A DNA stretch of 64,000 nucleotides from positions 26,991-90,990 of the IMG/VR virus record IMGVR_UViG_3300033571_007537; one strand, 5' to 3'. Each line of letters starts with the position of its first letter. The first letter of the stretch is position 1. Of the stretch, positions 10,301 through 63,393 are shown one piece after another. Below the pieces are notes generated by a model, which saw only the letters and a program-made list of their open reading frames with translations, was not told the DNA's origin and ran no database searches. A program made the position numbers and the translations under genes. This DNA comes from a virus.

Positions 10301-13300
10301 TTTGGGTTAAGAACTGAGAAAGTAGTTAGCTGCTTAGATACACCAAGCTTCACACCCTTGCCAGTCTTTACGCCAACTACTACACCGACGTAGTCATCAA
10401 CACCTGCTACGTCTCCATACTGGAGTTTGCTTGCAGGGATGTATTCAAATACTTCGCCAGCCTCTGTTGTGAGTTTAGGGTAAGGCTGTTCTTCTAGTCC
10501 TGCGGCTTCTGGTTCTGCTGGGACAGCATCGAGTCCACTATCTGCTGGTAGCTGGTCTCCGCCCACTGGGCTAGTTCCTGCTGGCTCATCTCCTGCGGGT
10601 TCTTCGGTAGCTGGACCATCTGAATCTTGTTCGGTTCCGCTTGTGGATTCTCCATTTTGCTGTGCCTTGCCTTTCTCGGTATACACGTAATTGCCTGTTG
10701 AAATATCATACACTGAAAGCTCTCCGCGTGCATCTGCACGTGCAAGGGCTTCCTCTTCTGTTGCGGCTACTTCGCTGACGTCTAGGTAAACTTTACCGTT
10801 TTCAGCATCGTGCCATGTTCCTAGGAAGAACCCTGGTTCTCCTAGTTTCTCTGCGTTCTTAAGCGCGAACGCTTCTAGAATCGCTCTACCCTTTGCAGCG
10901 TCAAAGAAGTCTGCCGCTTCGACAACTTCTTCACGCTTAGTTAGGGTTCCGTCTGGAAGTGCTACATCTGGTTCCATCGCAACGATGAATCCTTGAGCAG
11001 GTGAACTGCCATCAACGAAGTCAATAGTGCCACCGCCGTTAGCACCTGTACGGCTAACGATACTTTCTAGACCCTTTGGTGTAGTTGTGGCAGGAACAAA
11101 AATTGTGGATAGGTCGTACTTGTCTAGGATGCTCTTACGACGAAGCTTTAGAAGGTCAGCTAGGACGCCAGCTTTTTCAGGGTCGCTGGAAACAATTCCA
11201 TTTACCAACTGGTCAATCTGCTGGTCGCTAATCTTTTGAAGAGCCTTGGCTGATTCGAGCTTCTGCTCTTCTGTCATACTGCCAAATACTGCTGTGCTGT
11301 ACGGGTTCTTTCCGTTAATCAGAGTATCAATTTCAGTGGCTTCTTCATTGAAAGCATCGCCCTTAGGGGCACCTTGAGCACGGAATAGTAGTGCGCCACC
11401 CGGGTCAACACGAACTGGTTCGCCATTTGCATCTGAAACAATGTTGTCGTATCCAGTACCAGCAACGTCCCAGTTTGCTAGCCATGCGTCAACTGCAAAG
11501 CCCTCTTGGATTTTTCCAATAAAGTTCTTGTCGTCTAGCTTTTGACCTAGGTCTGGCTTGGCACCTTCAATCATTGGAGAGAATACAACTTCAGTACCGT
11601 CAGCCAAAATACCCTTACGAAGTTTGGCGGTTTCAATGCCTAGAGCTTCGTATAGTGCTGCTGCTAGAACTTCGTTATCTGCGTGCAGTTTGCTTTGAGC
11701 AACCTTTGCGTAGATTCTGTTGCCGTTCTCGTCTTCGTAAGTTCCGCCCTCGTTTGAGCCCTGCTTCTCGCCAACTTTTTTATAACCGCTTAGGTCTGCG
11801 AAAAGGCTAGCGTCTTCAGTTACCTGAGCAACTGTTGCTTTAGAAACTGTTGGAGCAGCATCTTCTGTTTTAGAAACTTCGTCAAGGTCTGCAAGAATCT
11901 TGTTAGTGTCGACGCCCTGAAGTTGTAGAGCATCACGAACAGCGTCCGCTTCTACGGTGTACGCTGGGCCCTTGTTGTTACCCTCTTCGTCTTTCATCTG
12001 AAGACGTACTGAGGAGTCTCCTCTGTTCAGAGCAATACGCAATCCACCCTCTAGGGCGAACTTGTTAAAGTTGTCAGCGATGAACTGTGGCTCGTCGCTA
12101 ACACCCTCAGGGAAGCCACTCTTGTCCTCTAGAGGGACGTAAGGGTCAATACCTAGTCCATACTGGATACTTAGGTCAGGGTCGTTCTCAAGTAGCTTGG
12201 AGCCCTCTGCCGGGGTCTCTGGAAGTACTGCTTTAACCTCTGGAGCCTTGGCTGGCTTAGCTTCATCAATCTTGTCCAATTCGCTAGGAGCCTTCTCCTG
12301 AGCGGCTGGCTTGATTAGTTCAGCCTTGACTTCATCTTTGTTCTTTTTGCTGTTAGCAGCCTTAGCCTTTTTAAGGTCTTTGTCCTCGACTTCAAGAGTT
12401 GCATCTACAACAGCAACCAAAGCGTCTTTTAGATTTGAAAGGTCTTTTGGAAGTGAAAGAGCAGCAGCCATCATCTGTGCAGTGATAACTTCTTCGTCTC
12501 CGCCATTAGCAATCTGCTTGATGCGGTCAGTTATAGGTGAGTCAGAATTTCCAACAAACTGGGTTAGAGCAGGGGTTGTCAGATTTGAACCAGCAAGGCT
12601 CTTTAGGGCAGCGTCAACCTTTGATAGGTTCTTGCCAGACTTAGCGGCAACAGCAGCAACTCGGTCTTCTGCGCTATAGGTTTCTGTCTCGGCTGCGGCT
12701 GGCTTCTCTAGAACATCTGGAGCGTCTTCAATTGCTTTGTCAAACTTTTCGGTGTCTTTGTTAGCAGCGACCTGAACTTTGCCCCAGCTCTGAACACGAG
12801 CAACAACTTCAGTTTCACCCTCGCCCTTGTAGATTGTAGCGTCACGCTTTACAACGTAAACTGGCTCGTTCTTTTGGAACTTTCCATCTAAACCGCTACC
12901 AGAGTTTTCAGCACCGCCATCAATCTCGGCTTGCTTCTTGAACGCAGGGTCAGACTTTTTACCTGAGTAGTTGTTGTAGACATCAACGATGTAGCCATCT
13001 TCAGACTTGTAACGCTTGTCTGGGTCAGAGTCTGATTCTTTTTTGTAGTTAGGGTCTTCGGTCCAACCATTAGGGACATCTTTTTTGGTCTTAAGAAGTT
13101 CGGCAACATCAAGAAAGTCAGTTCTAGTTTGGTCTACGTTCTGACCCTTGCTATCTTTTAGCAGGTTCTCAGGAGTAACACCTTGTAGTGCTTGGGTACG
13201 GTCAGCTGGAGCGACAATGATACCGCTACCTAGTTCAGGGTGGTTCTTGACCTCAATCTCAACGGTGCTTGGGTCTTTACCGCTACCTAGCGAGGTACCA

Positions 13301-14141: not shown

Positions 14142-14333
14142 TTATAGCTCGTCATCAATCTTCTGATTAATGGAAAAGTCAGTTATTTTGCTGACATCAT
14201 GGTGGATTGCAGCAGTGACTGGTTTCACTTCTGGTTTTGGTTCTGGCTTCTTTTTCTTAACAAGGTCTTCCAAATTATAAACTTGGTACTCGTCATCACC
14301 AGAGGTGAATCTATCTAGGCGGTCTTTGTCCAT
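14142..14333 (-). CDS. Small protein translationally coupled to the ART gene
   Basis: 63 aa; ATG overlaps the upstream stop (TAATG). Confidence 0.6.
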   Translation of the reverse strand: MDKDRLDRFTSGDDEYQVYNLEDLVKKKKPEPKPEVKPVTAAIHHDVSKITDFSINQKIDDEL

Positions 14334-17300
14334 TAGCTAATCCTTTCAAATACTGCGTAACCATCTGAATCCCAGCCCAAGAACCTTAGGGCAGTGTTAC
14401 GTGGGAGAAGGTATTCGTCCTCTGTATCATACCAGCTAATGGTGCTTAGGTCAATTCCGCTGGTGTTGTTAGGCATGACAATACGCATCGGGATTTGGTT
14501 AACATCTCCTGTACTTATGTCAATATCGCGGGCCTCATCAGAAAATACTTTGGTATGAGATGTTGATGAATAAGCTCTGTCAATAAGAACTTGCCCCGGT
14601 TGAGGGTTTAGTCTCTCCCAAGTAGATAGCTTCAACATTCTATAAACAGTCGACCCCGGCGGTAAATGAGCACTGAGAGTCATAGCTTCGTCAATGTCTT
14701 TAACTTGCTTTGAGTTTTCCATATCTGGGTCAGCATCACGCAATCCATTGTTAATTAGTAGCGAGCTGTCAACGTAGGTAAAGGCAGATTCACCAACGGA
14801 AGTGAGTGCATCGAAGTCAGCATCCTGTGGAGGTAGTGGCTTGTAGTTCGGGTCCTTCGTTAAAACTTCAAGAGTCTTTTTACGTAAAGCATCACGGTCT
14901 TTTTTGCTTGGGTCCTTACCTATTTTAGAAAGCGCGTCAGCTTCAGGAGAACTTGGGACAGCAATAAATCCGTTTATATAAACTGGCTTATCTTTATTGA
15001 GGGTGTTGTAGACAGGCTCGTTGACTTCTACCTCTGGCATAGGCAGCTTACTGCGGTCTACCTTAACTTTTTCTTTTGGCTTTACTTTAGGTAGAGGCTT
15101 GATTGGAGTTGGGATTGGGGCTTTAGGTTTAGGGGCATCTACTTTAGGTCTTACTGTTAGGTGTAGACCCTCAACTCCATTAGAGCCAATAGGTTTTCTT
15201 TCAGCGGAGACAACCTCAAACTTGGCGTTTCTAGCTAAAAGGACTTCCTCTTCATCGCCATAGCCTCCATCGATATCTAAGATGTCAATGTCTAATCCGC
15301 TACTACCTTTAGGCATATCGAACTGTACAACTACAGGAACCTTGCCCTCAACGTCAGTAGCAAATCTCTCGGCTATGGCAGGGTCTTTACTGGTAGAAGA
15401 AAATGTAGAGAAAGACCAAGTGCTACCCTCCGTGGTCCTGCTAGCAAACTCTTCAAATTTTTCTGGCGAGATGCGAATACCGCGATGGACAGAAGTGTCT
15501 GTCTCAAATTTAGTATTGGCAATAGCAGAGTCCAAACCTTCAATGGCTTTAATTGCGTCTATCTGGTCCTTTGTTAGACCATCTAGGTCGACATCGGAGT
15601 CTTTGCCATTAACTGCGTCGATATAGCTTTGAATAGGTTTATCTTTTAGAGCCAGTATTGTTTCGTTGATTTTGTCTTCGAAAATATAGTTGTAAATCGA
15701 AGACATCTCTTTACTGGAGTAGTTAGCTTGAAGTGCTTGGTCTGGCTGTGGCTTTTGTGGAACTATTGGTTCTGGTTCTGGGTCTGTGGCTTCTGAAGTT
15801 GCATTAACGGCGTAGTCATCAACGGTGGCACGCTTAGGCTCTTGCTCGATGATTTCGACGTCAACGATTCTTGTGCCTTCAACTGTGTTGATTCCAGTAA
15901 CTCTGTATTTAGTGTTTGGCGGAAGAAGAACTTCCTGCTCCTGCGAACCATAGCTGGAGACGTTGTCTGGAATCTTAAAACCCTTTTGACCCTTACGTGC
16001 TACAACTCTGAATAGTGCACGACCGACTGTTCCTGTGAGGTCCATGTCTGTATAGAAAGCTGCCCGCTGTCTGTCAGTTGTGTTTGAGGCGATTCCTCGG
16101 TCGACATACTCGTCGCCTACTTTTAGATTCAACAACTCTTCCCATTGGTTGGCATCTTCCTCGGGATATGCCCTACCTCTGTAGATTAGAGTGTCTACTT
16201 TTACTTCACTATCGTCAATCAAATCAAGAAGTACTTGGATTCCCTTTTTTGACTTTTCTGTTACATCTTCTCCAGCTCGTAAGAACTTAGTTGCTTGTTC
16301 GTAGCCAGTGTCAGTAAACCATTCAAGAACGTTCTCTTGTCTATCAGTTAGGTCTGGATTCTCGGTGAATGGGTCGTTGAATGAATTCGTGCCTTCGACC
16401 TCTGGTTCGTCGGCGAAGTAGTTGTCTAGTTCTTTGAATTCCTGAGGTTGTACTTCAGGTGTGGCTTCGGGTGTAGGAGGGTCTAACTCAATCCAAATAT
16501 GGGCTTGCCCATCGATAGGCTCTGCCTTAACTACTGTATACGAGAGACCGTGAGGCATCAAGAACTCGCGCTCCTCGAAACCTAAAGTCACGCCATGAGA
16601 ACCTGCTGGAGCTAAGACATGTAATTGGAATTTCATCTCTTTGCCGTACCTGTTTTTTAGAGGTTTACCAGCAGACAGCTCAGTAGTCGTAGATAAAAAT
16701 CCTTTGCTTTCCCACTTTTCACCGACTATAGATTCTAAAGACCTAACCTCTTTATCCCCCGAATCAGTAGATTTCTCTAGCTTGTACGTACCGTCTTCTT
16801 GCTGGACAAAATCATAACCTCCCCAAGTGGTCTGAGACCTTAAGAAAGACATTGGTTCAGGCAAAGTAGTAGACATAGCATGTTCTTGTAAAGCATCAAT
16901 TTGTGCTTTAATCTCGTCATCGACATCAGCTACATTGCCTCTTAGATAGTCATTCATGTAATTAAAGCCCATACCAGTGTATTCGTCAATCGCGTCATTT
17001 AAGACGTCGCTATACTCGTCCTCGTCTGTCTCATCGAGTCTAATCACTTCACCGTACTCTGACGGCTTATATCCGTCAGTGACATCTGGTGTGGCAGTTT
17101 CTTTTATATCAGCTGGAAGCTCATCTGTGCGGCTACGGTGAACCATGAAAGGCTGACCAGAAAGTTCTTGGAAAACAGAAAGCATCTTGAGGGTGTTGTC
17201 TGTCTTATCGTTCTTGAAAGACGCTGGGTCACCATTTCCATAGCCAGCTGGAGCCAAGGACCCATCCATGCCACCAATTCGTGTAATGTCTAGACCAACC

Positions 17301-18691
17301 TTGCCGTCACCAACATCAACAAACAATCTCTTGATGTCGCTAAAACCCAGTGACTCGTCAGACGCTTTGTATTCGTCGTAAGCACCTTCGCCATAAAGCT
17401 CGTCAAACTTTGCTTTGATGTCAGCGGCAGTCTTACCATGCTTCCCGAGGAACTCGGCTGCATCGTTACCTAGAGGGTCAACTGGTAGTAGGTCGAACTG
17501 TCCTGCCAAAGCGTAGTGGCGATACGGAGTGCTACCAGTAGACCTGCCAACACCATCTTGATACTTCTCAAGCCAAGGGGCTAGTTCAGGTTGTGCCAAA
17601 TCTCCAACGCGACGTACACGGTCAGGTTGTGAAGTTACGCCACGACCAATGACAACTCCGAACTCGTCTTCAAGTTGGCTGTAGCCAATCATTCCAAAAA
17701 CTTCGTCTGGCTTAACGTCGATTTCGTAACGTCCGTTGCCGTTGATGTTCGGTGCTTGGCTGTTGTAGTCATAAGCAAAGTCAGCGTTGGTTGTAACGTA
17801 ACCTAGTGCTGATTCCTCTGGGGTGCCCTTTTGGTTTGTAGCGTTGCGATAAAAGGTAATCTTGCCATCAGGGTTCATGTTCAAGACACGCTCTGCGTAA
17901 GCCTTGTTGATGTCCTTCATTTCCTGAGGGATTTCATCAAGACTGTTAGGAGACTGACTCATCTGTCCGACAGAGAGTTCTTTTACTCTGCCCCAGAAGT
18001 CTTCAAAGGTTGGATACTTTTCTTTCCAACTCGGGTCTTGGTTCTTTAGGTTTTCGTAGACAAGGTTGTAGTCTTCCTTAGCACCCTTAGCAATGTCTGA
18101 CTCTTCTCCCCAGAAGTTGGTGTTCGTCTGACGAGGAACTGGGAATCGCCCCTCTTCTTTAAGATTCTGAGTAACTGTAGAAAGTTTACGTTCCTGAACC
18201 TCGCTACCAGAAAGATTTTCTTTTCTTTCGGTTACTGGTTTAGCGACACCCAATTCCTTAGGCTCGTACTTGATTGACCCGATGTCTTGAATTGCTGCCT
18301 CGTCGCGAGCACTTACTTCATTGCCCTCGTAATCCTTACCCGGTTGGATTCCCATGCGGTCAAGGTCTTCTTGCTTGAGGGTAGCAATTACAGTTGAGCC
18401 ATTGTCAGAACTTACGTAGTAGTAGCCATCTGGAACGTTCGGGTCGCCCTGAACATAAACTCTTCCGAAAACGGAGTCGTTGCTTCCTTCAAACTTGCCA
18501 ATAACATTTACAACTCGTCCGTCTGCAAGACGTACTTTGAATTTAATTGACCTACCCATATCAACGAACCGCTTATAGCGGTCACGCCATTGTCTACGCC
18601 AGAAGCCCTTGTTGGCTCCTTCGTTACCGATAACGGCAACTAGAGCGGTGCTCTGCGGCTTAGGTATGCTAAAGGACGTTATGTGACGCAT
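14333..18691 (-). CDS. Multi-domain ADP-ribosyltransferase (four VIP2/Alt-like R-S-E domains, possibly a fifth divergent one)
   Basis: Repeated R / STS-like / ExE motif sets: FLRSQ-GFLSTT-EEREFL; IYRG-IASNTT-QEQEVLL; VHRG-FSSTS-DEEEVLL; VYRM-YSSTS-TEDEYLL. Confidence 0.85.
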   Translation of the reverse strand: MRHITSFSIPKPQSTALVAVIGNEGANKGFWRRQWRDRYKRFVDMGRSIKFKVRLADGRVVNVIGKFEGSNDSVFGRVYVQGDPNVPDGYYYVSSDNGSTVIATLKQEDLDRMGIQPGKDYEGNEVSARDEAAIQDIGSIKYEPKELGVAKPVTERKENLSGSEVQERKLSTVTQNLKEEGRFPVPRQTNTNFWGEESDIAKGAKEDYNLVYENLKNQDPSWKEKYPTFEDFWGRVKELSVGQMSQSPNSLDEIPQEMKDINKAYAERVLNMNPDGKITFYRNATNQKGTPEESALGYVTTNADFAYDYNSQAPNINGNGRYEIDVKPDEVFGMIGYSQLEDEFGVVIGRGVTSQPDRVRRVGDLAQPELAPWLEKYQDGVGRSTGSTPYRHYALAGQFDLLPVDPLGNDAAEFLGKHGKTAADIKAKFDELYGEGAYDEYKASDESLGFSDIKRLFVDVGDGKVGLDITRIGGMDGSLAPAGYGNGDPASFKNDKTDNTLKMLSVFQELSGQPFMVHRSRTDELPADIKETATPDVTDGYKPSEYGEVIRLDETDEDEYSDVLNDAIDEYTGMGFNYMNDYLRGNVADVDDEIKAQIDALQEHAMSTTLPEPMSFLRSQTTWGGYDFVQQEDGTYKLEKSTDSGDKEVRSLESIVGEKWESKGFLSTTTELSAGKPLKNRYGKEMKFQLHVLAPAGSHGVTLGFEEREFLMPHGLSYTVVKAEPIDGQAHIWIELDPPTPEATPEVQPQEFKELDNYFADEPEVEGTNSFNDPFTENPDLTDRQENVLEWFTDTGYEQATKFLRAGEDVTEKSKKGIQVLLDLIDDSEVKVDTLIYRGRAYPEEDANQWEELLNLKVGDEYVDRGIASNTTDRQRAAFYTDMDLTGTVGRALFRVVARKGQKGFKIPDNVSSYGSQEQEVLLPPNTKYRVTGINTVEGTRIVDVEIIEQEPKRATVDDYAVNATSEATDPEPEPIVPQKPQPDQALQANYSSKEMSSIYNYIFEDKINETILALKDKPIQSYIDAVNGKDSDVDLDGLTKDQIDAIKAIEGLDSAIANTKFETDTSVHRGIRISPEKFEEFASRTTEGSTWSFSTFSSTSKDPAIAERFATDVEGKVPVVVQFDMPKGSSGLDIDILDIDGGYGDEEEVLLARNAKFEVVSAERKPIGSNGVEGLHLTVRPKVDAPKPKAPIPTPIKPLPKVKPKEKVKVDRSKLPMPEVEVNEPVYNTLNKDKPVYINGFIAVPSSPEADALSKIGKDPSKKDRDALRKKTLEVLTKDPNYKPLPPQDADFDALTSVGESAFTYVDSSLLINNGLRDADPDMENSKQVKDIDEAMTLSAHLPPGSTVYRMLKLSTWERLNPQPGQVLIDRAYSSTSHTKVFSDEARDIDISTGDVNQIPMRIVMPNNTSGIDLSTISWYDTEDEYLLPRNTALRFLGWDSDGYAVFERIS

Positions 18692-21357: not shown

Positions 21358-21738
21358 TTAGCCTTTCGTTGAGTAAAGCGTCTTGTAAGGATTCCAGCTT
21401 CGTAGACGTGAGCCACAACCGCAATTGGTGTCCTTCTTGAAGGCTATCACCTTTCCGCTTACAGTGACAACTACTGAGTCTTGTTCTGGTGTTGCGGACT
21501 TAAAGAAGTTCTCTGGGCTGTAGCCCTCGTTGAACACAACTTGGGCACCTTCTGGAGTATCTTGTGCAATAAGAATGTTGGTCTCTGTAACGATAACTCG
21601 GGCGGTGTCTATTTGGTAAGTGTTGGGCAACGTCGATAGGGACGTGAACTCTTTTGGCTCAGCGATTGTGTTCGCTGGGGCAGCGGAGACGTGGGCTGGA
21701 AACAGGTCGTAAATAATCTTTGGTACTGGACTAGTCAT
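21358..21738 (-). CDS. Hypothetical protein with C-terminal CGCG motif
   Basis: 126-aa ORF coupled to its neighbours. Confidence 0.7.
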   Translation of the reverse strand: MTSPVPKIIYDLFPAHVSAAPANTIAEPKEFTSLSTLPNTYQIDTARVIVTETNILIAQDTPEGAQVVFNEGYSPENFFKSATPEQDSVVVTVSGKVIAFKKDTNCGCGSRLRSWNPYKTLYSTKG

Positions 21739-22240
21739 TCTTGCTTAATCTCCTTGCGATTGCTCTATGAGTAACATTAGCAGCTCTGGCAATGTCTGCA
21801 ATGGAAACGTCGTTATCTTTTAGTTCTCGGGTAAGTTGGTCCATCTCCTCGTTGGCTAACGAAGCAGGGTGGCTTGCTGCCATACCACTGCGATAGTTCT
21901 TAGCTAGTGGAGCAATATCGCGGAGTCTATCTGCAATGTCATTAGGGACGCCCGGAGATTTGGGGGTCAGACGCTGGTAGCCACCCTCAGGGGTGCGGAG
22001 TCTTGGAAAGTCAATAGGGACGTCGACGTTGTGAGGTGAGACTTGGTCGAGGCGGTCAATCCACGCCTTTACTGTGGAACGTCCTTTGGGCGGGTCGAGG
22101 GCCTCACCGATTGCTTGGAGCGTCCAACCTACTTGGTAGAGCTGCTTGGCTCGAATATGTAGACGTTCGCCAGAAAGCGAGCGGAGGAATAGGGACTCTG
22201 TTTTGGAGAGGGACTGGCCTCTTGCGGAACGTCTAGACAT
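21731..22240 (-). CDS. Double-HTH DNA-binding protein (paralog of 26912-27496)
   Basis: GWTLQAIGEAL..RSTVKAW and VSIADIARAANVTHRAIARRL helix-turn-helix patterns. Confidence 0.7.
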   Translation of the reverse strand: MSRRSARGQSLSKTESLFLRSLSGERLHIRAKQLYQVGWTLQAIGEALDPPKGRSTVKAWIDRLDQVSPHNVDVPIDFPRLRTPEGGYQRLTPKSPGVPNDIADRLRDIAPLAKNYRSGMAASHPASLANEEMDQLTRELKDNDVSIADIARAANVTHRAIARRLSKND

Positions 22241-22942: not shown

Positions 22943-22995
22943 AACACGCCGAACATCAAACTCAATTTGACAAACTATAAACAAAACCTCATACT
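22943..22995 (+). promoter_or_regulatory. Early-type promoter: AACACGCC box, TTGACA -35, CATACT -10
   Basis: Box 22943-22950, -35 at 22967-22972, 17-bp spacer, -10 at 22990-22995. Confidence 0.8.
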
Positions 22996-24855: not shown

Positions 24856-24907
24856 GACACGCCGAAGAACCTTCCAATTTGACAAACCAAACTTCATAGC
24901 CCATAAT
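24856..24907 (+). promoter_or_regulatory. Early-type promoter with GACACGCC box
   Basis: GACACGCC 24856-24863, TTGACA 24879-24884, CATAAT 24902-24907. Confidence 0.85.
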
Positions 24908-26339: not shown

Positions 26340-26616
26340 CCCTCAGCACTCAAAGATTTCCCCTCGTAGAGATACGGGGGTTTTCTTTTATCCAAACTGA
26401 AGCAGAAGCAGAACACCAGCACTTGACTTTTCACGAAATTCGCGTAGCCCCGGCTATTCCGGGTTTTCCGTGTAGCTTCCCCGCAGCGAGCAACTTTTTA
26501 CGAACTCCTCTTCAAAACTTTTTTTATTAGTCCGCGTGTCGATTTGACAAAATGTATGCCTATACCCCATACTTGATACATAAGCAGAAATGCTTACCAA
26601 CCTAAAGGAGATTCAA

Positions 26617-26911: not shown

Positions 26912-27496
26912 TTACCGCACTCGGTTCTTCTCCAAAATAGGGTGATAGACCTTGCTAGTTCCATTACTAGGTTTTAGGTAGCCGTATCTGGCAAGTCTAA
27001 ATCTAATCGCACCGTGAGTAGTTCCTAACCGCTTACCTAATCTGTAAAGCGTTACGCCCTCTGTTGTGTGTGAGTAATTTAGTAGCCTCGTGTATTCTTC
27101 TGCCTCTGCCCTAAACTTTGGTGAATTAGACCGCACCTTGCGTGCTAGAGGTTGAAGTTCTAGCAGTCGTGCCAAAGTTTCTGGCGAAGGTTCAATGTAA
27201 ACTGGTGAAGGTTTTACGGGCTTCAATGGAAGTTCTGGAATAGTTAGTCCATAAGATTTCGTAAGTTCTTCAGCAGTCGAAGCGTCAGTAATTTTTGCCA
27301 CTTGGCGAACTCTCTCCCTTGACCAATGGAATAGTTCAGCGACACTTTGTAATGTCCACCCGTGATTTCTCAATGTGGTTGCGTAAGCGTTTCGTATTTC
27401 TTTCCACTCCGCAGTCGGAAGTGTTGCGTGAAGTTTCGCAACATCAGTCGCAACCTCAGTTGGAAGTTGGTGATTATTTTTCTTGAATTGAGTCAT
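26912..27496 (-). CDS. Double-HTH DNA-binding protein
   Basis: GWTLQSVAELFHWSRERVRQV (sigma region-4-like) and GVTLYRLGKRLGTTHGAIRFRL; start reassigned to MTQFKK. Confidence 0.75.
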   Translation of the reverse strand: MTQFKKNNHQLPTEVATDVAKLHATLPTAEWKEIRNAYATTLRNHGWTLQSVAELFHWSRERVRQVAKITDASTAEELTKSYGLTIPELPLKPVKPSPVYIEPSPETLARLLELQPLARKVRSNSPKFRAEAEEYTRLLNYSHTTEGVTLYRLGKRLGTTHGAIRFRLARYGYLKPSNGTSKVYHPILEKNRVR

Positions 27497-27601
27497 TTTG
27501 TTTTTCTTTCTCCGAGTTTTGTCCCGGTTTTCCGTGTTGAACTTTTGACGAAGAAGAAGCGGGACGCTGAGGTCCCGCACCTTCTTCAGTTTGGTTTGAT
27601 T

Positions 27602-29417: not shown

Positions 29418-29658
29418 TTATTTCTCCTTTTGTCTTTTAGTCTTTCGACTTACTACAAAGGTAGCACATAACCCAATTGAACGCAAGTCCATTTCACCTC
29501 AGCGTGTCGCACTTGACAAAAGTCTTCCTTCGTGAAAAGTCTTCCTCCGTAAAAAGTTGAACGAGTTAGGCAACCCTAACTTTTCCGGGTGCTCCGTGTG
29601 AAGTCCCCGCGTCAAAAAAAAAATCCCCGCCATTTCTGACGGGGAAACTTTTTACTGA

Positions 29659-29847: not shown

Positions 29848-29997
29848 TTGAGTTCCTTTCTTGAACTACTACAATGGTAATGCTTTTGTTTAGGTTTGTC
29901 AAGTTCATTTGACGGCGTGTCGTGAATAACAAAATCCCCCCTGCTGTGTGCTGACAAGGGGGATTTTTTGAGTGTGTCCGACACTCGGCGGGTTCTT

Positions 29998-30186: not shown

Positions 30187-30398
30187 TTGAGTTCCTTTCT
30201 CGAACTACTACAATTGTATTGCTTTTGGTGTTGCTTGTCAAATCCAAAACATTTACGGCGTGTTGTGAACTTCGTGAACACTAACCCGCACTCGTGATAA
30301 TCCCTCTGAGATTGCCCACTCGTGAACTCGTGCTTCGGCTTCGCGTTCTGTATCTGCTTTTACTAAGAAGATGTTTCCGTATCCATTTACCTCGAACA

Positions 30399-32241: not shown

Positions 32242-32404
32242 TTTGTTTTCCTTTCTATTGACTACAATTACTATCTTACGCGTTCAATCGGCGTTTGTCA
32301 AATTAGACACGCCAAAGGTAAAACCCCCCTACCTAAAGGAAATCTAAAAGGTAGAGGGGTTTTGAAGGAGGGGCTGGTTAGGAGCAACCCCCTCCTCCAA
32401 CTTC

Positions 32405-32731: not shown

Positions 32732-33066
32732 TGGTTATCTCTTTCTGTTAGGTAAGCATTTCTGCTTATGTATCTAAGGTAGCCTATTTGATTTGATTTG
32801 TCAAATCCATTTGGTTCTCGGCGTGTCGTTTGTTGTTGCCTCCCCCTCAGCCCGACCTAAGGAATAAATCTGAGGGGGAGGTTTACCAATCAACCAACCA
32901 AGGGAATCAACCTTGATAACTAAAAGATACCATCTCAGGTTTCGTTTGTCAAATCGAGATGGGACGGCGTTCTTCGTAAAAAGTTGAAGGGAAGCACCAG
33001 CCCACACGGAACTCCGGGAAGAGGATAAAAAGAAACCCGACGAGATTTCTCCCATCGGGTTTTCTT

Positions 33067-34116: not shown

Positions 34117-34608
34117 TATTGCTTCTCCTCTTTCTGTTATTACTAAGGTATCAAGTAAAAAGATGTTTGTCAAATCCTGAGTCTGACGGCGGGTCGTCAA
34201 AAGTTTTCCGGGGGTTCCGTGTGCGTCTTCAAACAAAAAAGAAACACCCGCGTTCCCGCGAGTGCTTCCCTCGAAACTTTTACTGCTTGAGATGACCCTT
34301 GAGGAAATTACTCGGGTGTCGAGCAATACTTGCTTCAAGCCCCTTTGGGTCTGGGTTCGGCACACCTGCTTCGCTTGAAACAACTATAATTCGATACTTT
34401 GTTCCTGACCAACTCAGGAACGCCATCGCATAATCTTTCGCTTCTTGCTGAGTTGCGAACTCGTAAGGGAGAACTCCCTGCTTAGTTTCTACTTTGAAAA
34501 TCATTTGTTTCCTCTCTTTCTGTATCAAGTATTACAAATACTTTTAGTTTTGTCAAGCCCGACACGCGGTAAAACCCTCACCTTTTGATGAGGGTTTCCG
34601 CGTAGCCC

Positions 34609-34881: not shown

Positions 34882-35105
34882 TTTTATTTTCCTTTCGTTG
34901 GCTATGTATCAAGTATAGGGTTTATGCCCGCATCTGTCAAATCCAAACTTTGAACGGCGTGTCCCATAAAAAGTTGCGAAGGGAGGGCCGAGATGCTGAA
35001 CTTATCCGGGGCTTCCGTGTGGAGGGACGCGGCGGAAAAACTTTTCACGAAGAAAAAAAAACACCCCCTCCCAAATCGGGAGGAGGCATTTTTATTTAGC
35101 AGAAC

Positions 35106-35357: not shown

Positions 35358-35467
35358 TTTGTTCCTTTCTCGAACAATTACTACATTACAGGAAACGGCA
35401 CAGCAAGTCAAATCGCCACGCCGAAGAAGAACCCCCCGCACTCGGCGGGAGGTCTTCTAGCGAACGC

Positions 35468-35899: not shown

Positions 35900-36149
35900 A
35901 ATTTGTTCCTTTCTCGAACAATTACTACATTAGCCTAAATCGGCGTTGATGTCAAATTAGAAAGATTACGGCGTGTCGTCTTTTTCTTCTCCTTCCTCTT
36001 TTTCTTTTTACGAGTTCCATCAAAAGTTGCGAAGGGACGCAAGGCGTCTTGCGAGTTTTCACCAACCGCGACTTTTCCCGGTGTTTCGTGTTGCCCGCAC
36101 ACATAAAAGAAAGCCCCCGCATTTCTGCGGGGACTTCCTCAACCAACCC

Positions 36150-36365: not shown

Positions 36366-36490
36366 TTTTATCTTCCTCTCTCTGGGTGATGTATCTATTG
36401 AACCATACTTACCGCAATAAGTCAAATCTCGTGCCTCCCCGCGTGTCGCGAGGTTGAGGGCGGGTTTCCCCGCCCCCTCGCTCACCGCCC

Positions 36491-36805: not shown

Positions 36806-37081
36806 TTGTGATTTCCTTTCTAGTGGCTGATGTATCTATTGAACCACAACTGATTACATTTGTCAAATCGAACTTGCCTCTGGCGTGTCGCGTGTTTGTT
36901 CAGTTGTGTAGTTCTTTGGTGCTAAGTCAATTATGAGGGACTACATACCTTTTTGTCAAATCGAGATTTGATGAGAGATGACGCAACTTTTCACGAAGCG
37001 AAGCGAGGCACACGGAAAACCAGGAAACGGGTAAAAAGAAACCTCGCATTTCTGCGAGGCTTCTTCGTGAAAACTTACAAA

Positions 37082-37974: not shown

Positions 37975-38478
37975 TTGTTTTCCTTTCTTCGGGTCTACTA
38001 TCTATTATACAGATTTGTTGCTGATTGTCAAATCACGCTAACGGCGTGTCGCCATTACTCGTTCTCTGTGTCTTTGATGAATTGCTCAAACGCCTCGTCT
38101 ACTTCGGGGTCGTATAGCCACGCCAAGAAACCCTTGATGTCTGGCTTGTCTGTGTTCAACCCAAAGTTCGGGTTTAGTAGTTCGTCCTGAGTTCTTTTCT
38201 TTTCTGTCATTTTGTTTTCCTTTCATTAGATAGAACACTTTGTCTTTGTGATTTATTCCCGAACTTCCAAAACTTTTTTCTAATCCAGAAAGTTCCGTGA
38301 GTTCGGCAGAATACTTTGTGCTTACAAGGGACTAGGACTAGCGTTCCATAATCCTTTGGTTCTTTGAGCAAGCCCATAGCAAATAGTTCTGCCATTTCTG
38401 CGTCGCCTTTTTGTTCAACAAACATAGATTTCCTTTCTCTAATAAAGATAACCAAATTACTTTGTGATTTATTCCCGA

Positions 38479-38715: not shown

Positions 38716-38910
38716 TTCTGTTCCTTTCTCGAACTTACTATCTATTATACAGATTTACTTGGTGTTGTCAAATCTATTTCTATTCGGCGTGTTCTGGACA
38801 ACGACAACAATTCACGCAGAACTCCTGAGATTGGTCGCAGGAGAACTTGTCCATCCAATCCTTGCCACAATCGTCGCAGGGAGGGAATACTCGTCCAAAG
38901 ACTTCTGCCA

Positions 38911-39135: not shown

Positions 39136-39320
39136 TTGGTTCTCCTTTTCTATGTATCAAGTAAATCATAATTGTATTCTTTTGTCAAACTGAGGAAAAC
39201 TTCGGCGTGTCATCTCATCTCGTAAAAAGTTGTGAAGGCGAATACTTCTCCGGGATTTCCGTGTGAACTGACGGCAAAAAAGAAACCCCGATTTCTCGGG
39301 GCTTCCTCTATGGCGTGTTG

Positions 39321-40083: not shown

Positions 40084-40178
40084 TTGTATCTTCCTTTTCT
40101 AGTTGGTGTATCTCTTGATGTATCTATTGAACCATAGTTGCTCGTATTTGTCAAATCGAGTCAAACTTCGGCGTGTCG

Positions 40179-40711: not shown

Positions 40712-40895
40712 TTTTGATTTCCTTTCATTTGGCTTTATGTCTCTATTGAACCATAAATCTATCTTCGTGTCAAATCAAGTTGTCATCTGGCGTGTCGCAA
40801 CTTTTCATCAAAAGTTGGAAGCCCCTTCGCTTCACACGGAAACTTGGGAAAACTTGAAAAAAGAAAGAGGCGGGATTTCTCCCGCCCCTCTCTGT

Positions 40896-41983: not shown

Positions 41984-42112
41984 TTTATTTTCCTTTCATT
42001 GGGTTATGTTTCTATTATACAGATTTCAATCTGAATGTCAAATCCATTTACTTCGGCGTGTCAAGTTTTGATGGGGGAGGAGTTTTGGAGAAGACCTCCC
42101 CCACCAAGTTTG

Positions 42113-43936: not shown

Positions 43937-44092
43937 CTTTCTTCTCCTTTTCTGATAACAACACAAAGGTATCATCTTTTGATACTTTTGTCAAATCCTT
44001 TCGAGGGGGTGGGAATGGGCGTGTCGGGGAACAACGCCCACTCCCTCTCGACCAACTAGATGAAAGGAAGTAAATCTAGTCGGGAGTCTGTG

Positions 44093-45632: not shown

Positions 45633-45867
45633 TTATTTTCCTTTCGTTGATGTGTTACAAGTAAATCATAAATCTTGTTGCTTGTCAAATCGAACTACTT
45701 GTTCGGCGTGTCGCCATTCTTGTAGAAGTCGAGTAGTGCCTCAATGACTCCGCACTGAGAGCAAATCTCAGTTTCGTTGTCCTTGCGTGAGAGCGCACCT
45801 GCGTATGCTCCCGGAGTTTCATTGTTCGGGATGAACCCCTCACAAATCGGACAGATTGGAAACTCAC

Positions 45868-46068: not shown

Positions 46069-46154
46069 TGCATTCTCCTTTCAAAAGAACTTGTATAACT
46101 AAGTAAACACTATTTATTCAGTTTTGTCAAATCGAGACTACTCTCGGCGTGTCG

Positions 46155-46657: not shown

Positions 46658-46704
46658 TGACTATGTATCTATTGAATCATACTTCTTTGGATTTGTCAAA
46701 TCGT

Positions 46705-47121
46705 CTAATACTCGGCAGGTGTGATGTTTGTGCCAAGTTCCATTGCGAGTTTGTAGATGTTTGTGAGGTCAATAGTTCTGGTCTCACCCTTGTTGTTGTA
46801 AGCGACTGCGTATCCAGAGATGTAACGAAGTTTCTCTGCTCCAGACTCCATAATGATTGCGACCCATCCATCTTCTAGATGTGCTTGGAAAATCTTGTCC
46901 CAGTTGATTTCAAGGTATTCACCATCCTCGTCTGAATACTGAGAGTATGGAAAGCCACTGCCATCAGGGTCAGTGCCTAGTAGCCCAACAAGTTGGACGC
47001 CATCCTTTTCCTGAGTAATGATTTCTACATCATTTGTAACTGCGTTGATGTCAGTAGTGAATGCTTCAACGTCCTTCACTAGGAAGTAGTTGGTTCTTGC
47101 TGATGCGTAATAGTTTGCCAT
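46705..47121 (-). CDS. Phage hypothetical early protein (MANYYASARTNYF...)
   Basis: Rightmost GACACGCC cassette (47176-47203). Confidence 0.75.
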   Translation of the reverse strand: MANYYASARTNYFLVKDVEAFTTDINAVTNDVEIITQEKDGVQLVGLLGTDPDGSGFPYSQYSDEDGEYLEINWDKIFQAHLEDGWVAIIMESGAEKLRYISGYAVAYNNKGETRTIDLTNIYKLAMELGTNITPAEY

Positions 47122-47239
47122 TTGTTTTTCTCCTTTTCATTGGCGTAAGAAGAGTATGGCGTCTTTTATACAATTTGTCAAATCGACGTGAACGTGGCGT
47201 GTCGTAAGGGGTTTAGAGTTTTCCCAAACTTCCGTGTGG

Positions 47240-57895: not shown

Positions 57896-58736
57896 TTAGT
57901 GGCTACATCCGCATCCACCAGTATTAACAGGTAAAGGCTTTTTCATTTCAGCAAGTCTGTGTTGAACGGTTGACACGTCGAAGCCATCTTCAAAACCACA
58001 CTGGTACGCTTCTTCTTCTACATCGGATGCTAGTCGAGCAATCGCATTACGAGTCTCTGCACCGTCCCCCCAATTGCTTAGGTCGATGTCTTCTTTAGAT
58101 GGTACGTAAGCAAAAGCAGGGGACCAAGTATCCTCAGCAACTTTTTCTTCCCAATCAACTCTATATAAGTTGTAGCCGCTGTAGTCTTCTTCACTGCTCA
58201 TTTAAATCTAATCCTGCTCTGATAAATAGTTTTCAATATCAGCAACCATAATGTCTGCGGTTGCTTCTACAATTCTATCTTCCAAATCACGGATGCGTAG
58301 AGCGTTGTCTGCAATCTTTGCTTGCAGTTCCAAAATCCGTTGCTCAAGTGAATCTAGATACGTATTCAAAGCATCTTCATAGTTCTCACCCATCTATAGA
58401 ACCTTTATTTTCAGGCTCATCTTGAGGCTCCTTGCAGCATTTATCGCACTGCAATAAGTAAGTACATAGCCCATTTGTTTCACCAATAGGGTTTCGCATT
58501 TGTATATCATCTAAGTCAACGTGAAACTCACCATGTACGCACTCGCGTAGCATCAAGTTTCCGCTAAAATCCCACTTCTGAGGAGCTAAGCAGAGAGAAT
58601 GCACTGATGCGTTGTGTATGGTGCAAAACTCACCTTCACATTTTTCTTTTTCATGTACCGTAATTACCTGACCATAGTCATCAACCCAACGCTCACCCAT
58701 TGACAAAAACCCCTTCAATCTTTTCAGCAAGGTCAC
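57896..58736 (-). CDS. Three small hypothetical proteins (58386-~58700, 58208-58393, 57896-58201)
   Basis: Coupled ORFs at the end of the minus-strand operon. Confidence 0.6.
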
Positions 58737-59583
58737 TTAGGCTTCCGTTGTTTTCAATAAGGACGTCGACCTCATAGTCGTCCATCCCAATCTCTGACGG
58801 ATGGGAGTTAGCAGGACCAACACCCTTTCTAGTAACACGATAAACCTTACCGCCAAGTTTCTTAATAGCGTTCGCTTCGTTCGGATACCTAACGTCGGAG
58901 AAGACCAACTTCGAACCATCCTCTGCTCGGTCCAAAGCGGCGTTCACCCAAAAGTCTTCGTTAAACATTTCGCGTCCAACTTCAGTACCCATGCGTTGCA
59001 TCAAGCCACGAACTTCAGGAGCAAGACTCTTTAGTGCTTCCCAACCAAATCTTTCTACAGCAAGCTTCAACTCAACCGAGTCTTCCAACCCAACAAAAGT
59101 AATGTTTGGATTTAGGTTTACAAGTGCTTCACGCATCGGGTCTGCAAACGACATGCGAGTATACCCAGCGGTCTCAATCAAATGAGCAGCGACGGTATCT
59201 TTACCAGAGCGAGCATAACCAGAGATACCAACACAAGTTACACGAGGAATCAACTTTCCATCACGCAGAACCATTAGAGGTAGGTCTAGTGCTTTTGCTA
59301 CTTCAACTTCCAGCAGTGCACCTTTTGATGAACGCCAGTTTGGAAGTAAGCAGATTATGTCAACCTCAAGCACGTGCTTCAAGTCGCGACGCATGTACCA
59401 TCCCCAAGAATGTTTGCCAGAGTTAGCAGACGCTAAAGCCTCTTCATACGTTGAGCCATCGTTGTGTGCAGGGTTGATTACTTCATACCCCAACTCAAGC
59501 AACTGACGCTCTGCCTCAAAGAAAGCAGGAAAGTTCCAATCATCATACCCAGTCATAGGACCAGCGATGTATACCTTTTTCAT
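58693..59583 (-). CDS. DUF4406 (nucleoside deoxyribosyltransferase-like) fused to deoxynucleoside monophosphate kinase
   Basis: KVYIAGPMTG...NFPAF...INPA...W..SKGA.LE, then GISGYARSGKDT...SFAD...R.LMQRMGTEVGR...DVRYPNE. Confidence 0.85.
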   Translation of the reverse strand: MKKVYIAGPMTGYDDWNFPAFFEAERQLLELGYEVINPAHNDGSTYEEALASANSGKHSWGWYMRRDLKHVLEVDIICLLPNWRSSKGALLEVEVAKALDLPLMVLRDGKLIPRVTCVGISGYARSGKDTVAAHLIETAGYTRMSFADPMREALVNLNPNITFVGLEDSVELKLAVERFGWEALKSLAPEVRGLMQRMGTEVGREMFNEDFWVNAALDRAEDGSKLVFSDVRYPNEANAIKKLGGKVYRVTRKGVGPANSHPSEIGMDDYEVDVLIENNGSLSDLAEKIEGVFVNG

Positions 59584-59801
59584 ACGAAGACCCACCATCC
59601 GATTGCTTTCATAAACAAGGCAACAGCAACACTTAACCCAACTGCGCCAATCGTAAACTTAATTGCTCTCCACGGTTGAGGCAACTCTCTAGTTGCTTGA
59701 TAAGCAAAAGTAAAGAAGATAAGAGATACCCAAGCAAAGAACAACAAACCGGGTAGGGTCATTAACCCACCACCGAAATTAACTAAACCGTATTCGTCCA
59801 T
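59580..59801 (-). CDS. Small membrane protein
   Basis: Two hydrophobic segments. Confidence 0.55.
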   Translation of the reverse strand: MDEYGLVNFGGGLMTLPGLLFFAWVSLIFFTFAYQATRELPQPWRAIKFTIGAVGLSVAVALFMKAIGWWVFV

Positions 59802-59805
59802 TGGA

Positions 59806-60069
59806 CTACTCTACTACGCAGATAATATCTTTGTCATCTATGACGATGTACGCCTTGTTGTCATAGTCAAGTTTTGTTCCGCCGTATAGGGAGTAGATAA
59901 CTCTATCCCCAACTTTCAAATCACTTACGTCTGGACCAACGGATATTACCATTGCTTCCTGAGGTACCGTTTGAGCGTCGTCTGGAATGAATAGTCCAGA
60001 AGTTGTTTTCTCTGCCGCCTTTAGCGGTTCAATTACTACTCTGTTTACTAGAGGTCTGATTGTTGTCAT
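59806..60069 (-). CDS. groES: Co-chaperonin GroES
   Basis: IRPLVNRVVI...TTSGLFIPD...VISVGP...LKVGDRVIY..YGGT. Confidence 0.9.
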   Translation of the reverse strand: MTTIRPLVNRVVIEPLKAAEKTTSGLFIPDDAQTVPQEAMVISVGPDVSDLKVGDRVIYSLYGGTKLDYDNKAYIVIDDKDIICVVE

Positions 60070-60761
60070 GGTGCTACACGTCCGTTCTTGTTGAAACTAT
60101 CATACGTCAAAGGCATCTCTTTAGCAAAGAACTCTTCCATCTTCTCTGCAACCATCTCAATCTCCCGCTGAGGGAAAGATGGGAAGTGTGTCCCCTCCCG
60201 CTGTGTGCGCAGCGAGAGGAAGTTCATTAGTGAACGGGCGTTCATAGTTACATACATCGAAGAATAGATGTTCAGTGGCAAAACAATTCGAGCCACTTCG
60301 CGAGCAACTTCTGACTCCAGCATTGCTTGATAGTCTGTCCACGCTTGAGCGCAAGTTCCTTGTACGCCAGCCATAACAGTTGCGTACTGGTGGTGTGTTC
60401 CATCTTCAAACTCATAAGCACCCGGCTTACCAACCTGAACCAATTTGCGGTCTAGGTCTGGAACATAAAACACTGGAGCAAGTTCCTTGTAACGTCCGCT
60501 CTCTTCATTGTATGAAGCCATGCGATGGCGTTGGAACTCACGGAAAACAAATAAAGGTGCCTCGATGTAAAACGTAAACGCGTTGTGCTCGAACGGGCTT
60601 CCGTGTCTGTCACGCATTAGATAGTTGATTAGGCCAGCGTCCTTAGCGACGTCGATGCTTTTTGTTCCAGTTGATACTCGGGCGGCTAGGACGACAGCAT
60701 TGTCTGAAGCCATCGAGTTGACTAACTCAACGGTCATGTCGCTACGGTATGTAAGACTCAT
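60066..60761 (-). CDS. thyX: Flavin-dependent thymidylate synthase
   Basis: HGSPFEH; RHRMASYNEESGRY ThyX motif; EVARIVLP; NARSLMNFLSLR. Confidence 0.95.
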   Translation of the reverse strand: MSLTYRSDMTVELVNSMASDNAVVLAARVSTGTKSIDVAKDAGLINYLMRDRHGSPFEHNAFTFYIEAPLFVFREFQRHRMASYNEESGRYKELAPVFYVPDLDRKLVQVGKPGAYEFEDGTHHQYATVMAGVQGTCAQAWTDYQAMLESEVAREVARIVLPLNIYSSMYVTMNARSLMNFLSLRTQREGTHFPSFPQREIEMVAEKMEEFFAKEMPLTYDSFNKNGRVAP

Positions 60762-61914: not shown

Positions 61915-61945
61915 GGTTGTACCTTAACTAGATTGATTACCTGAG

Positions 61946-62018
61946 AGCCCCCAACAGGACTTGAACCCGTCACCTACGCATTACAAGTGCGTCGCTCTAC
62001 CAGATGAGCTATAGGGGC
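61946..62018 (-). tRNA. tRNA-Thr(TGT), CCA not encoded
   Basis: GCCCCTA acceptor, D-arm AGCTCATCTGGTAGAGC, anticodon arm ACGCA-CTTGTAA-TGCGT, GGTTCAAGTCC T-loop. Confidence 0.95.
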
Positions 62019-62519: not shown

Positions 62520-63044
62520 TTATTTTCTGCTCCAGTTCAGCCCTTTTCCAGACTCTATTGCAACTTGAACTCTACGAAGTTTGCCTGCCACAGAGTCCTT
62601 GCTCATACCAATTATACTGCCCACCTCTTCTAGCGACAATGTAGGGTGGTTGATTCTTGTTTCTAGAATTAAGCGGAAGTCCTGCGGCATACCAGCCCCA
62701 TACTTTTTTAATGCTCGCTTGTAGGTTTCCATATGAGATTTAGCGGCTAGAACTTTTCTTTCAGCATTTGTTGTACCTCTAAACAGTTTTGCACTACGTT
62801 CACTAAGTCCAATTCTGTTAGTGCCTTTACGAATTCGACGTCGCTCCCCTTCGGTTAATCCGCCCCACACCCCTATTGCGTTTAAGCTATCGCCCTCTTC
62901 CCGACACTCCATTTTTACTGGACATCTGGAGCAAACAGACTTTGCGTACTTCAATCTATCTTTGTCGTAGACATTGTCTTCATCTGGAAAGAAGACATCT
63001 AAATCTTCTTCTTGTCTACAGATACCTAGAGTCTTATCAAACAT
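62520..63044 (-). CDS. whiB: WhiB-family Fe-S regulator fused to a WhiA-type C-terminal HTH domain
   Basis: Four-Cys WhiB pattern (C...CSRCPVKMEC) with GVWGG; then RALKKYG..MP......RINHPTLSLEEVG....MSKDSVAGKLRR, matching the WhiA HTH. Confidence 0.85.
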   Translation of the reverse strand: MFDKTLGICRQEEDLDVFFPDEDNVYDKDRLKYAKSVCSRCPVKMECREEGDSLNAIGVWGGLTEGERRRIRKGTNRIGLSERSAKLFRGTTNAERKVLAAKSHMETYKRALKKYGAGMPQDFRLILETRINHPTLSLEEVGSIIGMSKDSVAGKLRRVQVAIESGKGLNWSRK

Positions 63045-63393
63045 TTTTTCCTTCTACGCGGTGCAGTATCACTATCCTCTAGTAAGACCGCGTAGAAGTC
63101 AAATCGACGTCGACGACTTAGTATTGCCTTTCGCTGTCTCTACGTTCTTTGTAGCACTTCGGGCAGTAGCTGCCCTTAAATCTAATCCTATGCTTATGGC
63201 AAGGGTAGCCAACCTTTTTGGCCACTACTGCTCACCCTCGCAGTTCATAATTGCTTCATACTCGGTTGTGTACTTGTCCCAGCAGTTCTCAGGCAGTTGC
63301 CCAGCTCCCACTACAAAGAAACCATACACCAAAGACCCGAGCATTGCAACAACAATCGCTCCAAAGACTACAAGCTCTTTCACAGTTACTTTG

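Follow-up and report, generated by a model that had tools for sequence, protein, structure and literature searches.

Cell division in Actinobacteria, Mycobacterium tuberculosis included, is regulated by WhiA and WhiB (WhiB2), which are essential and depend on each other; WhiB docks on region 4 of the primary sigma factor, as do WhiB1, WhiB3 and WhiB7. Each of the two proteins needs the other to bind their regulon. The core motif of WhiA in Streptomyces venezuelae is GACAC, and in this species the protein acts about equally as activator and repressor (PMC3781837). At sepX, the non-template strand carries GACAC ahead of (upstream of) the -35 element, and other WhiA/WhiB targets have it in either orientation and at variable spacing. 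According to the 2023 cryo-electron microscopy (cryo-EM) model, the N-terminal domain of WhiA mainly ties the DNA-reading helix-turn-helix (HTH) to sigma-bound WhiB; activation in S. venezuelae requires the contacts that this domain makes with DNA and with the beta-prime dock (PMC10243135). Here we describe an uncultured actinobacterial phage that encodes, on a single chain, a WhiB-like (Wbl) domain and the C-terminal DNA-binding part of WhiA (hereafter, the fusion). The gene is located in the last 64 kb (64,000 nucleotides, the window) of the 90,990-bp IMG/VR record IMGVR_UViG_3300033571_007537, which has a CheckV completeness of 53%. Together with ~27 promoters of the same phage that bear the known recognition motif of WhiA, this architecture suggests a one-chain version of the two-protein bacterial cell-division switch.

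Architecture and family of the fusion protein

The fusion gene occupies positions 62520 to 63044 of the minus strand, stop codon included, and its open reading frame (ORF) translates into 174 aa, from an ATG at 63044-63042 to a stop codon at 62520-62522. It is preceded by an AGGA-type ribosome-binding site (RBS) that was rated good. An earlier note, made from the sequence alone, had given the right coordinates, to which we add the strand. In the profile scan proposed in that note, the Pfam model Whib (PF02467) matched residues 7-70 with 56.8 bits (cut-off 23.6) and HTH_WhiA (PF02650) matched residues 91-160 with 37.3 bits (cut-off 27), over positions 9-81 of the 84 in the model, while no Pfam match to Sigma70_r4 (PF04545) was obtained even at E<=10. 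The outcome named in the earlier note as refuting, a C-terminal domain that scores as a generic sigma-r4 HTH in place of HTH_WhiA, thus did not occur, and the two-module architecture stands. The NCBIfam model of full-length WhiA (DUF199, TIGR00647) was matched over positions 192-300 of 304 only, with 35.4 bits, which is below its cut-off of 44.1. Since this match is limited to the last third of the model, the homing-endonuclease-like part of WhiA is absent from the fusion, as the earlier note had said of the LAGLIDADG-like N-terminal part. A PHROGs search of the protein recognised the WhiB part alone. No AT-hook of the WhiB7 type is visible in the translation, the C-terminal part of which consists of a helix and an HTH.

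An AlphaFold2 model built from 53 relatives (pLDDT 92.4) presented a small Wbl fold, a linker, a long helix and a three-helix bundle. In structural superposition, the long helix and the HTH matched residues 219-303 of WhiA only; for sigma region 4 domains the value was ~6.5 at most. The resemblance to the WhiA C-terminus, which the earlier note had pointed out, was recovered both in this superposition and in the alignment to residues 229-299 of S. venezuelae WhiA (chain 8dy9_I). Likewise, the complete WhiB domain that it had placed at residues ~1-75 is there, with its four Cys and the GVWGG motif, all invariant or nearly so among the relatives. In addition to what had been noted, the captured piece of WhiA includes the 'long helix' besides the HTH. 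Hence, by domain identity and by fold, the fusion is a WhiB module joined to the C-terminal DNA-binding part of WhiA. The linker between them is variable in length, with 21-49 residues from GG62 to N93 among relatives.

Residues with known roles are kept in both modules. F18, F19 and W60 of the fusion align with F17, F18 and W60 of WhiB1 as crystallised with sigma-A region 4, residues which we take to be the interface with that region. In the alignment of the 53 relatives, the four Cys and G58 are invariant (53/53), and F18, W60 and N93 are found in 52, 51 and 50 sequences, respectively. Position 130 is R or K and position 149 is K or R in all 53, and R157 is kept in 44 of them. In 13/53, as in S. 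venezuelae WhiA, two inserted residues ('PP') precede the (S/T)KD recognition helix. When aligned to chain 8dy9_I, WhiA residues N229, R266, L274, K287, R293 and R295 correspond to N93, R130, L138, K149, K155 and R157 of the fusion. Sporulation septation is lost when WhiA carries R266E, L274A or K287E, and is reduced when it carries R293E or R295E (Lilic et al. 2023, PMC10243135). K287 makes the sole base-specific hydrogen bond observed to the GACAC motif, and N229 is among the DNA contacts of the long helix (PMC10243135).

A word-indexed search returned 11 clusters with 47-100% identity to the fusion, every one with both Pfam domains. An exhaustive HMMER search of 1.84 billion representatives raised this to ~55-60 full-length matches of 160-217 aa; among the 53 that were aligned, Pfam detected Whib in 53, HTH_WhiA in 51 and Sigma70_r4 in 3. 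Compared with the PDB, the family profile matched WhiB (8dy9_H, 2e-20), residues 209-304 of WhiA (8dy9_I, 7e-17) and Thermotoga maritima WhiA (3e-8). As actinobacterial WhiA outscored Thermotoga WhiA (65 vs 37 bits), the DNA-reading part was most likely captured from an actinobacterial WhiA. The search of phage databases for the same architecture, which the earlier note had suggested, thus yielded at least 53 diverged relatives. Every family member is metagenomic, on contigs of up to 136 kb, and is annotated at source as 'WhiB family redox-sensing transcriptional regulator' or 'hypothetical protein'. Because annotations say no more than this, surveys in which whiB serves to mark actinophages have missed the architecture. 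We found no fusion in cultured phages, as no record in a collection of 50,697 phage genomes covered more than ~41% of the protein; the top tblastn match was the WhiB of mycobacteriophage TM4, with 42% identity over fusion residues 7-76. No cellular or prophage copy was found in two pattern-based scans of 185,579 prokaryote species genomes, the sensitivity of which is limited, and a scan of metagenome contigs added one further copy of a lineage with 48% identity and nothing else. The earlier note knew of no description of such a fusion, and we found none in the searchable literature; a systematic survey of WhiB in phages makes no mention of WhiA.

Other combinations of these domains were also encountered in the exhaustive HMMER search. 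Two proteins, P0074 (487 aa) and P0138 (569 aa), contain several tandem HTH_WhiA-like domains (Pfam, 101-108 bits) with repeated stretches and have no WhiB, and P0071 (117 aa) is a stand-alone HTH_WhiA domain. WhiB is fused to a Xre-type HTH_3 in P0060 (260 aa) and is present as a tandem double domain in P0054 (260 aa).

WhiA-motif boxes upstream of phage promoters

Bare GACAC is not enriched genome-wide (161 sites vs ~182 expected). Inspection of the intergenic GACAC sites first revealed a composite element, and only the extended and positioned motif is enriched. In the window, GACACGC-N(8-22)-TTGACA occurs 14 times, 13 of them on the gene strand, where 0.08 is expected, a count reached by none of 100 shuffles; GACACGC alone occurs 28 times vs 6.5 expected. 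Once TTGACT and a wider gap were allowed, 16 such promoters (class A) were counted, and in 13 of them the distance from the G of GACAC to the first T of the -35 element downstream is 21-24 bp, with a mode of 23. A second arrangement (class B), in which the box is inverted and stands 3-4 bp from the -35 element (GCGTGTC-N3/4-TTGACA), occurs four times vs 0.02 expected. Five or six further promoters have boxes with one to three altered bases at the same place, such as AACACGCCG. With class A, class B (five, including a variant picked by eye) and the class A variants, the total comes to ~27 box promoters, most of which have GACACGCC on the non-template strand 21-24 bp upstream of TTGACA.

All box sites are within 22.9-47.2 kb of the window, where they precede small genes between the packaging genes and the replication and nucleotide-metabolism module; similar promoters that have no box number only about seven there. 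A -10-like hexamer follows the -35 element after ~17 bp, and then a conserved GATACAT-like stretch. The -35 element is followed, 46-67 nt later, by an RBS and an ORF start at 24 of the 27 sites, the ORFs being 62-607 aa long. The box consensus, (c)GACACGCCG(a), equals the extended WhiA motif known from mycobacteria. Indeed, GACACGCC is the motif obtained for M. tuberculosis WhiA by ChIP-seq and by in-vitro IDAP-seq with the pure protein, and ChIP-seq of M. tuberculosis WhiB2 yields the same motif; an earlier ChIP study gave CGACACGCCGn, and cGACACGc was reported for M. smegmatis WhiB2 (PMC13473873). That these WhiA-motif boxes exist, are enriched and are placed in this way is observed directly on the phage DNA. 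Together, the conserved contact residues and the presence of GACACGCC at a set distance upstream of the -35 element lend indirect support to the idea that the fusion acts at GACAC promoters.

We consider it very improbable that the boxes match the WhiA motif by coincidence and serve another phage or host factor, the fusion being a general phage transcription factor of unrelated specificity. The phage does have other DNA-binding candidates, for example a 222-aa protein with a Sigma70_r4 match, and relatives described below have swapped their promoter elements yet kept the fusion. However, an identity of 8 bp to an experimental WhiA motif, together with a WhiA-type HTH in which the contact residues are intact, is unlikely by chance, and the enrichment is more than 100-fold over shuffles.

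The explanation that we favour, with modest confidence, is that the fusion is a single-chain regulator of the WhiA/WhiB type that would dock on sigma-A region 4 and read WhiA boxes. From the sequence we infer that it binds an iron-sulfur cluster, sigma and DNA: the N-terminal Wbl domain would use its four Cys to bind a [4Fe-4S] cluster and would sit at the -35 element on region 4 of the primary sigma factor of the host, and the C-terminal long helix and HTH would read the GACAC(GCC) box upstream of -35 through its major groove. The 37-residue helix, estimated at ~55 A if straight, would together with the linker reach upstream, so that the HTH could read GACAC ~18 bp away, an estimated ~60 A along B-DNA. 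In the cellular system, WhiA's homing-endonuclease-like domain joins the HTH to sigma-bound WhiB non-covalently. A peptide bond would substitute for this tie in the fusion, and one phage protein would therefore do the work of two mutually dependent host proteins; with both modules in one chain, the dependence of WhiA and WhiB on each other for binding to the regulon would be removed. The most probable targets would be the ~27 sigma-A-type box promoters of this phage. They could be served in a cascade, in which host RNA polymerase would first make the regulator from a promoter with no box and the regulator would then act on the box promoters. The candidate promoter of the fusion gene, which is of the same core type and has no box, fits such a cascade. 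We tentatively put forward that a two-protein host switch was made into one polypeptide, with a block of phage transcription running from the ~27 promoters as read by sigma-A holoenzyme with the fusion.

We lean toward activation by recruitment over repression. The strict register of class A and the conserved F18, F19 and W60 speak for cooperation with sigma; repression would be compatible with the consensus -35 and with the geometry of class B. It seems improbable to us that the fusion is a classical repressor or a temporal switch. Its HTH would bind the boxes independently of sigma, the Wbl domain would only sense redox state or NO or serve in dimerisation, and box promoters fired early by host RNA polymerase, with or without host WhiA/WhiB2, would be shut off. 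Such promoters, with their consensus -35 and reasonable -10, may need no activator, and an HTH bound to a class B box would crowd both sigma region 4 and sigma-bound Wbl; the dual behaviour of WhiA in S. venezuelae (PMC3781837) also gives repression a precedent. On the other hand, the near-invariant residues that align with WhiB1 F17/F18/W60 are hard to explain without sigma binding, and the tight 21-24 bp register of class A suggests cooperation with sigma-bound polymerase instead of plain occlusion.

Relatives, possible targets and phage setting

Several observations weigh against the favoured explanation. GACAC-N-TTGACA promoters are absent from five other phage contigs that carry the fusion (G001-G004 and G014). 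Two of these, G014 (fusion 56% identical, TerL 80%) and G002 (fusion 48% identical, TerL 81%), show synteny with this phage over the stretch between the fusion gene and the terminase and portal genes, and both have zero GACACGCC-TTGACA sites; the equivalent region contains other repeated promoter elements instead of the boxes, with an A-tract and a CCGCCGAC-like box before TTGACT in G002. A complete 57-kb phage with a 33%-identical fusion has no box enrichment either. Since relatives with the fusion have no boxes, the link between protein and box is not general, and the boxes are a feature of this phage lineage, not of the fusion family. Conversely, an IMG/VR reverse search for the box-promoter pattern returned, among the matches listed, mostly single chance matches, with the exception of the actinophage contig G010, which has three ACACGCC-N-ATTTGAC promoters and no HTH_WhiA gene. 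Host WhiA together with a WhiB could therefore read such boxes. The link between the fusion and the boxes is thus circumstantial. Moreover, as the fusion has no WhiA N-terminal domain, it may not activate as S. venezuelae WhiA does, and the need for an activator is not obvious, since the box promoters already have a consensus -35.

The promoter elements of these contigs were noted in their own right. On the minus strand of G002, at ~8.4-28.4 kb, ~16 promoters combine AAAGAAAAAG, a GC-rich box (CCGCCGAC or CGCGCCG), a gap of 6-14 nt and TTGACT-N17-TAGACT; they occupy the region equivalent to that of the WhiA-box promoters and share only a CGCCG core with them, which we judged too weak to claim as a common upstream element. 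In G014, at ~30-48 kb of the plus strand, an intergenic repeat GGCATTTTTCATTTTTNCTAGAT followed by the palindrome AACTTCGTGAGAAGTT stands before many small genes, which suggests that the promoter/operator system was replaced. A 172-aa protein of G010 (L208 1480-1998, minus strand) consists of a Cys/His-rich N-terminal extension and a C-terminal WhiB domain, without HTH_WhiA.

Conservation of the WhiA contact residues throughout the family, when boxes are confined to one lineage, points to a shared target outside the phage genomes, for which the host WhiA/WhiB2 regulon is the obvious candidate. By analogy with the cellular system, host promoters of this regulon (cell division, replication) are likely secondary or alternative targets. 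The fusion might even be aimed mainly at the host, where it would occupy GACAC(GCC) boxes at WhiA/WhiB2-dependent promoters of cell division and DNA replication, either as a dominant-negative competitor that blocks septation or as a constitutive substitute through which these genes would escape control by the host. The boxes of the phage itself would then be read by host WhiA and WhiB2, or represent a lineage-specific side use. We rate this alternative as unlikely, and a competitor role at host promoters as a serious rival. The retention of the fusion in relatives without boxes implies that the common target of the family is probably not in the phage, and the family-wide conservation of the residues that contact the WhiA motif agrees with it. 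Dominant-negative action is possible because the fusion does not have the WhiA domain that touches the beta-prime dock, contacts that S. venezuelae WhiA requires for activation, and box promoters also exist in a phage without the fusion (G010). There is a precedent in the WhiB of mycobacteriophage TM4, which lowers whiB2 expression and phenocopies WhiB2 depletion (PMC6282962). Against a mainly host-directed role, ~27 boxes at a fixed register before phage genes make a large target set in the regulator's own genome.

The identical fusion protein is also encoded on a 106.7-kb contig, the assembled contigs of this phage being 91-107 kb long. Nearly all genes of the window are on the minus strand, with a G+C content of ~46%, and its phage-type genes code for a portal, a large terminase, a head protease/minor head protein, ThyX, a GroES-like protein and a deoxynucleoside monophosphate kinase fusion. 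The last is a 301-aa protein (58693-59598, minus strand) with a nucleoside 2-deoxyribosyltransferase-like N-terminus, and its gene adjoins those of the GroES-like protein (59806-60069) and ThyX (60066-60761). Downstream of the fusion gene, at a distance of ~500 bp, there is a tRNA-Thr gene (anticodon TGT; 61945-62018, minus strand), which could serve to trace the host. The structural module has a single ORF of 3211 aa (4381-14016, minus strand) beside an open-ended ORF of 1236 aa at 1-3708. A 1452-aa protein (14333-18691, minus strand), matching a head maturation protease/minor head protein and an Alt-like ADP-ribosyltransferase, may be an ejected, host-modifying head protein. Two smaller proteins, one of 222 aa (26912-27580, minus strand; Sigma70_r4, 31.9 bits) and one of 169 aa upstream of the portal (21731-22240, minus strand; a weak, sub-threshold HTH_WhiA match of 17.4 bits), may be a small terminase or further DNA-binding proteins.

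Table 1. Domains of the fusion protein, its candidate promoter and the box promoters, in window coordinates.
Feature	Position	Strand	Basis or remark
WhiB (Wbl) domain, residues 7-70: Cys9, Cys38, Cys41, Cys47; F18/F19; G58-V-W60-G-G62	62835..63026	-	
Short basic linker, residues 74-81, lower model confidence	62802..62825	-	pLDDT 77-78 in blocks 71-90
Long helix, residues 82-118, corresponding to WhiA 'LH'; holds N93 (WhiA N229) and R96	62691..62801	-	AlphaFold2 helix; superposition
Three-helix HTH, residues 121-165: R130, L138, K149, K155, R157	62550..62684	-	Pfam HTH_WhiA, 8dy9_I alignment
Candidate -35 of the fusion gene's own promoter, TTGACT after cgat as in other phage promoters; no WhiA box upstream	63097..63102	-	inference from sequence only
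Class A, GACACGCC-N-TTGACA	24856..24884	+	
Class A, short spacing	29897..29921	-	
Class A	32799..32827	-	
Class A	34935..34963	-	
Class A	35950..35977	-	
Class A, GACACGCG, -35 TTGACT	36420..36447	-	
Class A	36861..36889	-	
Class A, short spacing	38026..38050	-	
Class A	39183..39211	-	
Class A	40149..40177	-	
Class A	40768..40796	-	
Class A	42036..42062	-	
Class A, long spacing	43989..44025	-	
Class A	45683..45712	-	
Class A	46125..46153	-	
Class A	47176..47203	-	
Class B, inverted box GCGTGTC-N3-TTGACA	26534..26549	+	
Class B, inverted box	29502..29518	+	
Class B, inverted box	32296..32312	-	
Class B, inverted box	34551..34567	-	
Class B variant, GCGTGGC-N3-TTGACT	35406..35421	-	picked by eye
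Class A variant box AACACGCCG; perfect GACACGCC also upstream at 22918	22943..22972	+	
Class A variant box AACACGCCG	30236..30264	-	
Class A variant box AGAACGCCG	32947..32973	-	picked by eye
Class A variant box GACCCGCCG	34168..34195	-	picked by eye
Class A variant box AACACGCCG	38766..38793	-	
Class A variant box CACCTGCCG	46694..46721	-	picked by eye

Comparison with described Wbl and WhiA proteins

Uncultured actinophages have captured a DNA-specificity module besides plain WhiB, and at least one lineage has dozens of promoters with a matching box. With 174 aa, the fusion is a compact object for biochemistry and structure work, and a natural protein with a peptide bond in place of the tie provided by WhiA is a direct test of the 2023 cryo-EM model. 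If it is a one-polypeptide switch, the endonuclease-like domain of WhiA would be dispensable and the fusion would offer a natural minimal model of WhiA/WhiB activation, possibly also being a phage tool for seizing host genes of division and replication.

The closest described system is the dual activator formed by WhiA and WhiB (WhiB2) in S. venezuelae (8DY7/8DY9) and M. tuberculosis, with which the fusion shares the Wbl iron-sulfur domain and the WhiA long helix and HTH. The DNA-contact residues validated by mutation in WhiA are kept, and the phage boxes equal the M. tuberculosis motif. Unlike this pair of proteins of ~87 and 327 aa, the fusion is one phage-encoded chain, and it does not have the homing-endonuclease-like domain that, in the complex, links WhiB with the HTH and makes contact with DNA and the beta-prime dock. 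Sequence scores place its Wbl part no nearer to WhiB/WhiB2 than to WhiB1 or WhiB3.

A Wbl protein with a DNA-reading appendage of its own is already known in WhiB7, which is bound to sigma-A region 4 and activates promoters whose motif stands just upstream of -35 (PMC10243135). The appendage of WhiB7 is a short AT-hook that reads the minor groove of an AT-rich site adjoining the -35 element, whereas that of the fusion is an 85-residue helix plus HTH predicted to read a GC-rich box, ~20 bp upstream of -35, through its major groove. Phage-borne Wbl domains are represented by TM4 WhiB, which interferes with host WhiB2 and septation (PMC6282962), and by other stand-alone phage WhiB proteins; unlike the fusion, none of these has HTH_WhiA. 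Finally, WblP, a Wbl joined to an extracytoplasmic function (ECF) sigma factor, is the fused form listed in a review of Wbl proteins (PMC6282962). As in the fusion, its Wbl is covalently linked to a DNA-binding fold resembling sigma region 4. WblP contains a whole ECF sigma, whereas the fusion has a WhiA-type HTH only; having no sigma region 2, it cannot itself act as a sigma factor. Set beside these systems, the fusion is a Wbl protein with its own DNA reader, as WhiB7 is, or a covalent form of the WhiA/WhiB pair.

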